From the NCBI GenBank assembly GCA_016188045.1, contig JACPIM010000002.1, positions 108,737 through 172,736 on the forward strand: 64,000 nt of DNA, read 5' to 3'. Shown in pieces: positions 5,018-14,279 of this stretch (positions are counted from its first letter, which is position 1; each line of letters starts with the position of its first letter). Origin of the DNA: Candidatus Woesearchaeota archaeon (GTDB taxonomy: Archaea > Nanobdellota > Nanobdellia > SCGC-AAA011-G17 > JACPIM01). The position numbers and the translations under genes are program-made. The notes beneath the pieces are model-generated. The model was not told the DNA's origin. It did not search any database and saw only the letters and a program-made list of their open reading frames with translations.

Positions 5018-5110
5018 GCGCCGATAGTTTAGTGGTTAGAATCTCGGCCTTCCAAGCCGATGACCTGAGAAACAGTATACTGTTCAGGATTTCAAATCTC
5101 AGTCGGCGCA
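5018..5110 (+). tRNA. tRNA-Gly(TCC) with a 21-nt intron at position 53/54 (5070-5090)
   Basis: Acceptor stem GCGCCGA/TCGGCGC, anticodon loop CTTCCAA, T-stem CTGAG/CTCAG; intron forms a BHB with central helix CCTG/CAGG. Confidence 0.93.
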
Positions 5111-5131
5111 GATTCTATTAAAATTAAAAAA

Positions 5132-5305
5132 CGGGCCTGATCGGACTTTCATTAAGTCTTGCAGGTTGATAAGGATGCAATCCTTATTTTTGAACCGACA
5201 ACCCCAAGCTAAATCCTAGGATTAGGACGCTTGTGCTCTATTTACTTAATAAGTTTGCAGGTTGATAAGGATGCAATCCTTATTTCCAAGTTGAGCTACA
5301 GGCCC
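5132..5305 (-). tRNA. tRNA-Arg(CCT) with three introns: 19/20 (5242-5285, 44 nt), 37/38 (5211-5222, 12 nt) and 59/60 (5146-5188, 43 nt)
   Basis: Removing the three segments gives a 75-nt cloverleaf GGGCCTG...GGATAGAGC...GTCCTAA...TTCAAAT...CAGGCCCG; each junction has a BHB-like 4-bp helix (ACTT/AAGT, GTCC/GGAT, TTCA/TGAA); A20 fits Arg identity. Confidence 0.88.
5159..5285 (+). repeat. Identical 31-bp direct repeat (5159-5189 and 5255-5285) forming the cores of two tRNA introns
   Basis: TTGCAGGTTGATAAGGATGCAATCCTTATTT occurs twice. Confidence 0.95.
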
Positions 5306-5338
5306 ATAAAGTATATCTTTTTATTTTTATATATAAAA

Positions 5339-7117
5339 CTATAGGTTGCGGAGCTTTTGTAAATAAGGAATTAGAAATCTGCTCCAAGTTTCATATTTTT
5401 TAGTATAATCTGGATCGCCAACCAAGTCAGGAATAGCAATCATTTTCCCAGAAACAATTGAGGCCTCTTTTGGCCTTACAGTCCCATTAGTATGCATAGT
5501 AAAAACCAATCCAAAATGAACTGTATCAACTTCTTTATCATAAGCCATAAGAGTTCCAACTAATTTTGATCTAGTAATCTCACCCAGCATTTCAACCTCT
5601 TCCTCCATAACTTCTCTTTCTAAACATCTTTCAACATATCTTGGACCATCAGCTTTGATGATATGACCACCAGGACCTACAGAATGTTTTCCAAATAACC
5701 TTTCATCACCATAATCCTTGATATCTTTTGATCTAACATACGAAAATACATTTCCATTAGAATCAAATATTACAATATAAGGGATTGGTTGCAATACTTC
5801 AGTATCAAATTCACAATCATATCTAGATTGAAAAAATCCATCTTCTATATCTTTATTTAATCTCTTAGCCTCTTCTTCTGTTATAAACTCAAGACCTTCT
5901 TTAGTTCTTCTATGCTCCATTAAAATTCTGGCATCCTGCACTAATACCATTCTATCAAGTTTTTTATAATTTTTAGCAGCAAAAGCAAAATCAAATCGCC
6001 TAAAATGTTTTGAAGGTCTTGAACCAACCTGGTCCTGGTAATGAGAACCTATATCTACCCCATAAAACTTATCTGGCATTCCAGTTCTAAAAATATCTAA
6101 TTTACTAATAGGCATACCATCTTGTATTTCAATATTAGACAACTCGTCTGATCTCACTTCATAGACGAGAGCACCAAAAAAACGATTATCCACATAGCCC
6201 GAGAGGTGTAATGGCCCGGTAAAACCCACATGAGAATGGCTTTTTAGTTCCATATTAAGATGATCTGGTACTTTTATAACTTCCCTAGATGAAAGCAAAT
6301 AGTGTTCTGATCTGTTAATCATAATTTTACTACCTTTCAAAGGTTCAAAAAAATCTTCCGCCTTGTACTCTCCTTCCTTACTTAAGTCAATTGGTGTTGG
6401 GTTATGCCTAGCTCTAAGTCCGGTAATACCCCAGGTATGTTTTCCCTGCAAGTCAACATGAACTAAAACCGTATCAGTTATAATAGGTTCAACCGGTACC
6501 AATTCATCCTTTTCTTCTACAAATAAGAAGGGGTTTATCTTAAATTCTTCAACTATCTCAGCTGAAGTTAATTGTGAACAAGAACCAATATGAAATCTCA
6601 ATTGATTTAATGAAATACCAGGATATAATATAAGATTAAACGCTAAAGGTTGCAATAGTAACCAAAGCATTAATTCAGAATCAGATTTATACTGAGAATT
6701 TATCTCATCAAAAGAAGGATTATAATCGGCAAGCAGTCTCGTATTTAAGAATAATCTACCCAAACTGCTTTTTGGTGAAGATTTTATATACTCACTAGCA
6801 CTAAGAACAACTCTCTCTTCTAAAGGAACTAAATAAGAATAACCTCTTTTTATCTCAAAACCACCACTAATTTTAACTTTGGGTCTTTGTCCGCCAGGAA
6901 GTTGTAGAAGAGTTCTACGAACGGTTTCATTTATTTGTGGCCTAAATAACCAATTAGTTTCGGTTAGAATATATAACTCATCACTAACAACAGGATCAAA
7001 TGAAGAAGGTTGAATTCTAGATTCATCGACTCTAGGAGTAACTATTCTTTTATTAATAATCCGATCTCTAATATCTTGCGATGGCAAACAAAAACCCATT
7101 TTATTATCCAAAGACAT
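5339..7117 (-). CDS. dcd: dCTP deaminase (dUTPase-fold, duplicated-domain type) fused to a C-terminal NUDIX-like domain
   Basis: IQPSSFD, SPKSSLGRL and GYVDNRFFG motifs; C-terminal LQPIPY...GGHI...LEREVMEE...VHFG resembles COG4112 NUDIX proteins. Confidence 0.8.
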   Translation of the reverse strand: MSLDNKMGFCLPSQDIRDRIINKRIVTPRVDESRIQPSSFDPVVSDELYILTETNWLFRPQINETVRRTLLQLPGGQRPKVKISGGFEIKRGYSYLVPLEERVVLSASEYIKSSPKSSLGRLFLNTRLLADYNPSFDEINSQYKSDSELMLWLLLQPLAFNLILYPGISLNQLRFHIGSCSQLTSAEIVEEFKINPFLFVEEKDELVPVEPIITDTVLVHVDLQGKHTWGITGLRARHNPTPIDLSKEGEYKAEDFFEPLKGSKIMINRSEHYLLSSREVIKVPDHLNMELKSHSHVGFTGPLHLSGYVDNRFFGALVYEVRSDELSNIEIQDGMPISKLDIFRTGMPDKFYGVDIGSHYQDQVGSRPSKHFRRFDFAFAAKNYKKLDRMVLVQDARILMEHRRTKEGLEFITEEEAKRLNKDIEDGFFQSRYDCEFDTEVLQPIPYIVIFDSNGNVFSYVRSKDIKDYGDERLFGKHSVGPGGHIIKADGPRYVERCLEREVMEEEVEMLGEITRSKLVGTLMAYDKEVDTVHFGLVFTMHTNGTVRPKEASIVSGKMIAIPDLVGDPDYTKKYETWSRFLIPYLQKLRNL

Positions 7118-14012: not shown

Positions 14013-14176
14013 TGCGGGGAACAGGATTCGAATTCGCAACCCTTTTCCGTGAACGCTTTTCCTAAAAGGGTTCCTGCGTAGGCACTAAGCCAATACGTCT
14101 TGAGCGTATCCCGTCAAGTCGATTCTTTCCGAGGTTTCTTCCTAAGAAAGCTCTTTGACCACTCCGGCATCCCCGC
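14013..14176 (-). tRNA. tRNA-Leu(CAA) with two 40-nt introns (D-loop 14115-14154; position 53/54 14033-14072)
   Basis: GCGGGGA/TCCCCGC acceptor stem, CTCAAGA anticodon loop, long variable arm; BHB helices GGTC/GACT and CGCA/TGCG. Confidence 0.92.
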
Positions 14177-14279
14177 ATATAAGGAATTATTCCTTATCAA
14201 CCATAAATAAGTAAGAAAACCTTTATAAATCTTACAATGCAAAAAAGCAAGTAATAGAAAATAGTTATTGGGGGGACAA

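Follow-up and report, generated by a model that had tools for sequence, protein, structure and literature searches.

The gene for tRNA-Arg(CCT) in the genome of a Candidatus Woesearchaeota archaeon (assembly GCA_016188045.1, here G000) is interrupted by three introns, the two larger of which contain an identical core of 31 nucleotides (nt). It lies in the stretch of 64,000 nt that was analysed, called the window in the following (G000:C9:108737-172736). The host is a small groundwater archaeon of the Woesearchaeota type within the DPANN, and its genome comprises 1.02 Mb in 24 contigs, with 30.4% G+C and an estimated completeness of 92.55%. Comparison of the gene with its relatives suggests, with a probability of roughly three in four, that the shared core is a small mobile hairpin module which resides inside intron frames of the bulge-helix-bulge (BHB) type, and that the locus is a working tRNA-Arg(CCU) gene with three introns spliced by proteins. 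A first-pass annotation of the same DNA had recognised a triple-intron tRNA-Arg(CCT) with a 75-nt mature form and had proposed a very recent copying of one intron within the gene; the former stood up to scrutiny, the latter did not.

Intron candidates were enumerated by the BHB rule, i.e. a helix of 4 base pairs (bp) with the splice site two bases into each of the 3-nt bulges, and each spliced variant was run through ARAGORN without its intron option. Removal of 44, 12 and 43 nt left a product of 75 nt which strict ARAGORN called over its full length as tRNA-Arg(cct). The minimum-free-energy (MFE) fold of this product is exactly the cloverleaf (-30.1 kcal/mol), with four perfectly paired stems and intact signature bases in the D- and T-loops. 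The unspliced gene was called neither by ARAGORN nor by Rfam at the gathering score in runs which did call the neighbouring tRNA-Gly(TCC). As standard tRNA finders miss such genes, the tRNA counts of these genomes are affected. The two copies of the 31-nt core, which are 96 nt apart, have no differences between them, an exact repeat far beyond chance, and the intron lengths of 44 and 43 nt given in the annotation proved correct. The same holds for the minimal 12-nt anticodon intron and the unusual G32 of the anticodon loop, which reads G32 T CCT A A. This G32 (region 5226-5228 of the window, and locus L013) is common to G000 and its congener G001, while other members of the family have C32. 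Another Arg(CCT) gene, which the annotation had named as a possible objection, was not found in the 92.55% complete genome with two queries: BLAST with the spliced product matched only the Arg(CCT) locus and a tRNA-Arg(TCT) paralog, and a structural search for a CCT anticodon arm with a T-arm motif gave four matches, tRNA-like only at the Arg(CCT) locus. Two extra 'cct' solutions returned by the solver were spurious, being by eye a tRNA-Lys(CTT) and a Ser-type gene. The anatomy of the locus is summarised in Table 1.

Table 1: Layout of the tRNA-Arg(CCT) locus in window coordinates
Feature	Position	Strand	Remarks
tRNA-Arg(CCT) gene, three introns, 174 nt including discriminator G	5132..5305	(-)	G1 at 5305, discriminator at 5132
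Exon 1: acceptor 5' strand, D-stem 5' strand, D-loop to conserved GG	5286..5305	(-)	
D-loop intron, 44 nt	5242..5285	(-)	gene positions 21-64
Exon 2: D-loop 3' end, D-stem 3' strand, anticodon stem 5' strand, loop G32 T33 C34 C35 T36 A37	5223..5241	(-)	anticodon 5226..5224
Canonical 37/38 intron, 12 nt	5211..5222	(-)	gene positions 84-95
Exon 3: A38, anticodon stem 3' strand, variable loop, T-stem 5' strand, T-loop TTCAAA	5189..5210	(-)	
T-loop intron at 59/60, 43 nt	5146..5188	(-)	gene positions 118-160
Exon 4: T60, T-stem 3' strand, acceptor 3' strand, discriminator G	5132..5145	(-)	
TATA-like A/T-rich stretch about 19-33 nt upstream of G1, likely promoter element	5324..5338	(-)	function judged from sequence; upstream stretch conserved in G001 ortholog
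T-run right after discriminator, likely terminator	5120..5131	(-)	function judged from sequence
Identical 31-nt core, copy 1: hairpin module ATAAGGAT-TGC-ATCCTTAT then CAACCTGCAA, in T-loop intron	5159..5189	(-)	
Identical 31-nt core, copy 2, in D-loop intron	5255..5285	(-)	

The different ends of the two large introns make a site-specific splice helix (H helix) with the local exon in each case, ACTT/AAGT in the D-loop and TTCA/TGAA in the T-loop, as the annotation had observed; the pairs are canonical and are followed by the 3-nt bulges which hold the splice sites. In the D-loop intron all four pairs of exon ACTT with intron AAGT are formed, the bulges are GG|A and AA|A, and an inner helix AATAAG/CTTATT of 6 bp follows; here the 5' bulge is strict and the outer helix weak. 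In the T-loop intron exon TTCA and intron TGAA likewise form four of four pairs, with bulges AA|A and AG|T, the T-stem serving as outer helix, a strict 3' bulge, and, beyond one mismatch, an inner helix of 4 bp. Two or three bases of the module take part in the inner helix. The 12-nt 37/38 intron has the H helix GTCC/GGAT (4/4 pairs, one of them G-U) and a strict 3' bulge TT|A, its 5' site lying within a small loop, which is the bulge-helix-loop (BHL) type. Every pair of the helices drawn by hand for the three introns is canonical. When both sites are required to lie in 3-nt bulges 4 bp apart, or else in an accepted relaxed form (HBh', hBH or BHL), all three are predicted BHB introns, each relaxed on one side. 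The precursor folds with -53.9 kcal/mol (z = -4.2), and its MFE structure includes the D-loop and anticodon helices.

Comparison of tRNA-Arg(CCT) in related genomes, which the annotation had recommended, gave a second view of the junctions. The G001 ortholog lacks the introns of the D-loop and of 37/38, and it shows AACTTGGATA in the D-loop and GTCCTAA in the anticodon loop. All Arg(CCT) and Arg(TCT) genes of the family which have no intron at the D-loop site read CTTGG|ATAGAGC. As these intron-less relatives match the predicted joints exactly, including G32, they confirm the junctions independently. The D-loop H helix also covaries, being ACTT/AAGT in Arg(CCT), GCTT/AAGC in Arg(TCT), and GCTT/GAGC in G002 and G013. 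Over their first 73 nt the Arg(CCT) and Arg(TCT) genes of G000 differ at two positions only, and these two form the compensatory pair ACTT/AAGT versus GCTT/AAGC. Splicing of the three introns in vivo is predicted.

The core is by no means confined to this gene. Its hairpin module of about 27 nt reads AAGGATTGCATCC and then TTATCAACCTGCAA. A 25-nt core was searched with 0-2 mismatches in 240 genomes of the order and found in 16 of them, which belong to 11 of 132 genera and six families; within the source genome's own family it occurs in 8 of 15 genomes, and the reversed core used as a control gave no match in the 240 genomes. Of 41 related genomes, 12 had matches to the 174-nt Arg(CCT) locus. 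In a set of 185,579 species representatives the exact core was found in 20 stretches, all titled as metagenome-assembled genomes (MAGs) of Woesearchaeota, Nanoarchaeota or Nanoarchaeia, and in viral contigs it was not found. The DNA around Arg(CCT) is only 72% identical to that of the congener G001. Because other genes, genera and families have the core in an equally identical form, the identity of its two copies does not date a copying event, and the very recent date given in the annotation could not be upheld.

A census of contexts covered 61 distinct copies with up to 5 mismatches, taken from G000 and from fetched loci. T-loop position 59/60 harbours 25 of these, two further T-loop copies are cut by contig ends, D-loops contain six, and 28 were classed as 'other'. 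Inspection of the latter by eye placed four in tRNAs, namely L023 in a T-loop, L006 and L019 near the anticodon stem, and L025 at 37/38, and about 23 outside tRNAs, often right at stop codons or before start codons. Copies occur in either orientation relative to genes, inside open reading frames (ORFs) and at ORF ends, one of them within an open frame of more than 1094 codons. Further copies in G000 are at C2:310, C5:2915, C6:41395, C13:15499 and C15:58706. The 3' motif ATCAACCTGCA is duplicated in tandem in some copies, and the stem has a compensatory variant AAGGGT..ACCCTT. Two other readings of the repeat were dropped: that of a CRISPR repeat since the copies are not in spaced arrays, and that of a promoter element since they lie within ORFs and introns in both orientations. 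No Rfam family matches the intron (the nearest weak match is snoR101 on the other strand, with 12.9 bits at a threshold of 40), and no C/D-box motif was seen in the core by eye.

The T-loop copies allow the pairing rule to be checked on a larger sample. With exon and intron 4-mers in register, 17 of 25 copies form 4/4 pairs and the remaining 8 form 3/4, as compared with 4/4 pairs in only 4 of 150 trials for six shifted registers. Of the 19 TTCA loops, 14 face an intron partner which starts with T, and of the 6 TTCG loops, 4 face one which starts with C; the two are never crossed. This argues that the T-loop copies are real BHB introns, the pairing of the splice helix being kept by covariation.

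Whole introns have come and gone among the Arg(CCT) orthologs, which have from zero to three of them, so that the locus does bear on the gain of archaeal introns as the annotation had stated. G000 has introns in the D-loop, at 37/38 and in the T-loop. The G001 gene has an intron of another family near 29/30 and a T-loop intron at the same site as in G000 with another hairpin in it; G002 has the D-loop intron and a long 37/38 intron but no T-loop intron. In G004 there is only a short 37/38 intron, G009 has introns at other sites, and G010, G006 and G007 have none. Both G000 and G002 have the D-loop intron of the family in Arg(CCT). As to Arg(TCT), it is found in G000 and G013 and is lacking in G001, G002, G007 and G012. 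In relatives, introns of the family are found at T-loop, D-loop, anticodon-stem and 37/38 sites. Within G000 the paralogous tRNA-Arg(TCT) (C9:212291-212421) shares the D-loop intron with Arg(CCT) in 43 of 44 bases, and tRNA-Ser(TGA) (C9:12162-12286) contains a T-loop copy of the core with the same type of ends as the T-loop intron of Arg(CCT). Similar introns are thus found in different tRNA genes and at different positions, as would be expected for a transposed intron family. We infer the direction of the single gains and losses from such presence and absence, and it should be read as probable only.

Module and frame can be told apart in five orthologs of tRNA-Arg(GCG), G011, G014, G015 and G006 from one genus and G008 from another, whose D-loop introns have the site and the 3' end in common. 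In G011 the interior consists of just the family hairpin; G014, G015 and G006 have another hairpin in its place, and in G008 the family hairpin lies beside a remnant of that other one: the hairpin has been exchanged within one frame. In addition, a 43-nt T-loop intron of the family is found only in G008 and is precisely absent from the other four, which gives G008 an independent pair of 'twin' family copies in the D- and T-loops.

Other apparent triple-intron genes in G000 are a tRNA-Phe(GAA) (C17:28238-28361; introns of 20, 16 and 14 nt) and a Lys(TTT)-like gene (C14:92619-92824; introns of 11, 32 and 90 nt), and three introns are therefore not unique to Arg(CCT) in this genome. The underlying census used a strict T-arm/acceptor scan which yielded 30 candidates with 29 distinct 3' ends (a looser scan gave 6631). 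All introns were removed before strict ARAGORN was applied, as the intron option of ARAGORN gave ambiguous anticodons, and several genes still remained ambiguous. At least 21 of the 29 genes exceed 95 nt, too long to be intron-less, and the T-loop is interrupted in 8 of 29. A full tRNA set comprises about 45 genes; only 32 candidates were located in G000, and the census is incomplete.

The module is also found as an insertion in a protein gene. A core copy at C15:58706-58730 lies within a 310-amino-acid ORF (C15:58076-59005), on the other strand. The orthologs in the congeners G001 and G002 are 73% and 63% identical along their length, and both are without exactly nine residues at this place. 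At the nucleotide level the gap measures 27 nt relative to G001 (28 nt relative to G002, where the alignment is noisier), and it contains the hairpin plus CAAYCTGCAA and no intron-type tail. As the stretch is identical to a dispersed repeat, an in-frame insertion of nine amino acids appears to be the simpler reading. No target duplication was seen at the site.

Taken together, these findings suggest the following course of events. The Arg(CCU) transcript would lose three BHB introns, cut by a single EndA endonuclease of the alpha type and joined by the ligase RtcB. Each of the large introns would be composed of a site-specific frame, i.e. a few bases at each end which pair with the local exon to form the splice helix, and of the shared module, the hairpin of about 27 nt, which may act as a small mobile DNA element of the lineage, residing in tRNA introns (of the T-loop, the D-loop and other sites), in intergenic DNA and, in frame, within protein genes. 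The 31 nt common to the two introns would then be two copies of the module rather than one intron copied to the other loop. The identical middle being a module at the DNA level and the ends being frames, the pattern of same core and own ends is explained in the direction opposite to that taken by the annotation. The D-loop intron common to Arg(CCU) and Arg(UCU) probably stems from conversion between their nearly identical 5' halves. The T-loop intron belongs to the commonest subfamily, which fits any tRNA with a TTCAAAT or TTCGAAT loop, and whole introns have also come and gone. A more far-reaching proposal, possible but rather doubtful in its full extent, is that the 27-nt hairpin is the very agent which builds and rebuilds protein-spliced introns. 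It would land in loop-like A/T-rich sites of tRNAs, be excised by a plain alpha4 EndA with the help of a few flanking bases, and spread from T-loop to T-loop by the TTCRAAT context, and a 29-nt insertion in the rtcB gene at GGATTCGAT would be the same process in a protein gene.

As to the splicing enzymes, a search with PF01974 gave one EndA candidate in G000 at E-values up to 1, a protein of 175 amino acids encoded at L033:1255-1779, with an N-terminal PF02778 and the catalytic PF01974 domain. Its residues 24-175 align without gaps to residues 20-171 of the alpha4 enzyme of M. jannaschii (1A79). By its gene architecture it is an enzyme of the alpha4 type, with a predicted oligomeric state. 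Loop insertions have been tied to the cleavage of relaxed motifs, and an 'L3' loop has been described in alpha4 enzymes of DPANN archaea (Kaneta et al. 2018, PMC5829648). The ungapped alignment suggests that the G000 enzyme may be without L3. A plain-looking EndA, which resembles the strict M. jannaschii type, apparently handles many non-canonical introns, which can be seen as a tension within the proposed mechanism or as a point of interest.

The gene of the RtcB ligase is present at C6:27952-29294 and is interrupted by the insertion mentioned above. It is the only rtcB found in G000, and the 29 nt (C6:28102-28130), which can form a hairpin, lie between the codons for GGIGFD and INCG, are out of frame and carry a stop, their removal restoring one long RtcB frame. 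The ends of the insertion pair as TTCG/CGAA with bulges AT|T and AA|A, in agreement with the BHB rule, and the exon sequence around it, GGATTCGAT, looks similar to a T-arm. In six relatives the GFDINCG of RtcB is uninterrupted. With this insertion, the mRNA of the splicing ligase itself may contain an intron which is spliced by proteins. The rtcB frames of G002, G018, G021, G006, G001 and G008 comprise 831-1010 codons, and their Pfam match is split, in G008 around model positions 183-210 and otherwise around 49-66. In G018 the extra part begins at the Cys after GFDIN. These extra parts look like inteins, two codons away from the insertion site in G000.

Several observations weigh against a mobile module in BHB frames. 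Short T-loop introns which have the same ends and no hairpin were found in none of the 240 genomes with a narrow search pattern, and none is among the Arg genes of the family; as no hairpin-less version of either large intron was found, the module may have arrived together with its frame. The polarity of the C15 insertion is not rooted by an outgroup, and the 92.55% complete G000 genome gave no match for a Y1 (PF01797) or TnpB (PF07282) transposase. The hairpin itself varies little: a compensatory change is confined to one stem pair, where 7 of 61 copies have it, and of the 488 stem cells 14 are broken. All three BHB motifs of Arg(CCT) are relaxed on one side, that of the T-loop is absent from the MFE fold of the precursor, and the sole EndA found is of the plain alpha type without the extra residues of the N. 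equitans alpha subunit. Among the sequencing runs listed for the locus, none is registered as RNA. Finally, public contigs break inside the 31-nt repeat, with no contig bridging it.

This last point leads to the possibility of a repeat-induced misjoin as the source of the twin arrangement. In favour of a misjoin, the length of the repeat equals exactly the word size of the public contigs. The misjoin is extremely unlikely all the same. Contigs of X1 and X4 from one study and of X7 from another cover positions 5082-5188, 5160/5167-5274/5284 and 5261-5700, and in them every unique tail and exon is connected with a core copy, on the side where this is expected, with all four exon-intron junctions covered. 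The alternative path through the repeat would give a gene without an anticodon arm, and the same sites are occupied in independent genomes, the T-loop in G001, the D-loop in G002, and both loops of Arg(GCG) in G008. The exclusion of an assembly artefact demanded by the annotation thus extends to the sides of each copy. That Arg(CCT) is a decaying, unspliced pseudogene, with tRNA-Arg(UCU) reading AGG by wobble, is very unlikely too. A tRNA-Arg(CCT) can be dispensable where U34 reads both A and G, and G32 is unusual. On the other hand, stems, signature bases, splice helices with their compensatory pair, and the promoter-like and terminator-like flanks are intact, the same intron family occurs in tRNA-Ser(TGA) and many other tRNAs, and the two queries for another Arg(CCT) gene remained without result.

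Copying of one large intron very recently into the other loop of the same gene, with subsequent adaptation of its 3' end to the new exon, would account for the 31 identical nt and for the similar spacer which follows the core (AAACTTATT versus AAGACTTAA), and 43 nt are too few to exclude a donor. It is nevertheless improbable, as the core is just as identical elsewhere, T-loop-type ends are already present in tRNA-Ser(TGA) of G000 and in at least 23 T-loop copies in other places, the T-loop intron of G001 occurs without one in the D-loop while G002 shows the reverse, and a freshly landed intron with a D-loop tail could not be spliced in the T-loop. Somewhat less remote, though still unlikely, is that the core is kept identical by a cellular function of the excised and probably circular intron RNA or of the hairpin, e.g. 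as a protein-binding site or as an aid for EndA recognition, and not by selfish mobility. The near-perfect conservation of 25-27 nt across families while neighbouring DNA falls to 72%, the occasional tandem arrangement of the 3' motif and the compensatory stem variant would fit such a function. The orientation of copies both ways relative to genes, their location inside ORFs and at ORF ends, the patchy distribution even in the own family, the work of orthologous introns with other hairpins, and the lack of a matching Rfam family argue against it.

Multi-intron tRNA genes and 'tRNA intron transposition' are known from the Thermoproteales (Fujishima et al. 2010, as summarised in PMC4033280). The summary describes up to three BHB introns per tRNA gene at non-canonical sites and similar introns recurring in different tRNA genes and positions, there read as copying between genes, and in these respects the present case is alike. 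It differs from what is summarised there in that the host belongs to the DPANN/Woesearchaeota and not to the Crenarchaeota, and in that EndA is of a plain alpha type and not an (alpha-beta)2 enzyme with a specific loop. The shared part here is a 27-nt hairpin module which is nearly invariant across families, is not limited to tRNA genes but also found in frame in ORFs, and is swapped while the intron frame persists.

Bacterial repetitive extragenic palindromes (REPs) and Rickettsia palindromic elements are short dispersed hairpin repeats which show insertion polymorphism, are inserted in frame in ORFs and occur at gene ends. The present module resembles them as a dispersed short hairpin repeat found also outside tRNA genes and at gene ends, with filled and empty sites between close relatives, including the in-frame insertion in a protein gene (unrooted). 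Unlike these it is archaeal, comprises only about 27 nt, has no GTAG/CGTC tag, and has as preferred home the protein-spliced tRNA introns; neither a transposase of the Y1/RAYT (REP-associated tyrosine transposase) type in G000 nor a target duplication at the C15 site was found.

DPANN MAGs, including Woesearchaeota and Pacearchaeota, have been reported to contain many disrupted tRNA genes and an alpha4-type EndA, with tRNA sets which were incompletely predicted (Kaneta et al. 2018, PMC5829648). The link drawn in that article between disruption and the L3 insertion is strained by the present case, and with it the published link of EndA loop insertions to the tolerance of non-canonical introns (PMC5829648), as the G000 enzyme is ungapped against that of M. 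jannaschii. A census of Asgard tRNA introns found heavily interrupted genes, standard software having overlooked many introns of the D-arm, and recurrent gains at sites compatible with a BHB; its abstract reports no general route of arrival, neither copying between genes nor mobile elements (bioRxiv 10.64898/2026.10.13.758758). How archaeal tRNA introns arrive is an open question, and in the lineage described here both copying between tRNA genes and a mobile element become visible. This one small lineage offers a readable series of zero to three introns, swapped hairpins, a T-loop intron in one of five orthologs and a bare 27-nt insertion, and it makes two routes directly testable, one being the transfer of introns from tRNA gene to tRNA gene and the other a mobile element which seeds or remodels them. 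A literature search, supplements aside, gave no account of this hairpin or intron family in DPANN, nor of a mobile hairpin of about 27 nt as a shared part of introns, its exchange within a frame, or its occurrence in ORFs.

A second recurrent intron content was noticed in the course of the analysis, a hairpin of the type CTTTCTT..AAGAAA followed by CGTTCRCGAAAGAAA, which recurs in several tRNAs and genomes, in introns of the T-loop and at 29/30 and 37/38 (G000 C6:324-554, C2:7-159 and C15:61372-61504; L013; L003). At C13:15440-15525 and C2:230-340 of G000, intergenic arrays of TTCTTATCAAC-type units adjoin a core copy, and a AAGAACCAAGGTTCTTATCAACTCC unit is located in the T-loop intron of G001 Arg(CCT) and in intergenic DNA of G000. 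Within the window, the convergent neighbour tRNA-Gly(TCC) at 5018-5110 (+) has a T-arm intron of 19-21 nt (at about 52/53-53/54) which is unrelated to the hairpin family. From about position 14176 downward on the minus strand lies an intron-containing type-II tRNA, Leu-like by eye, which starts with GCGGGGATGCCGGAGTGG and was called neither by ARAGORN nor by Rfam, and a diverged copy of the hairpin with 7 mismatches is located directly upstream of it at 14181-14205.

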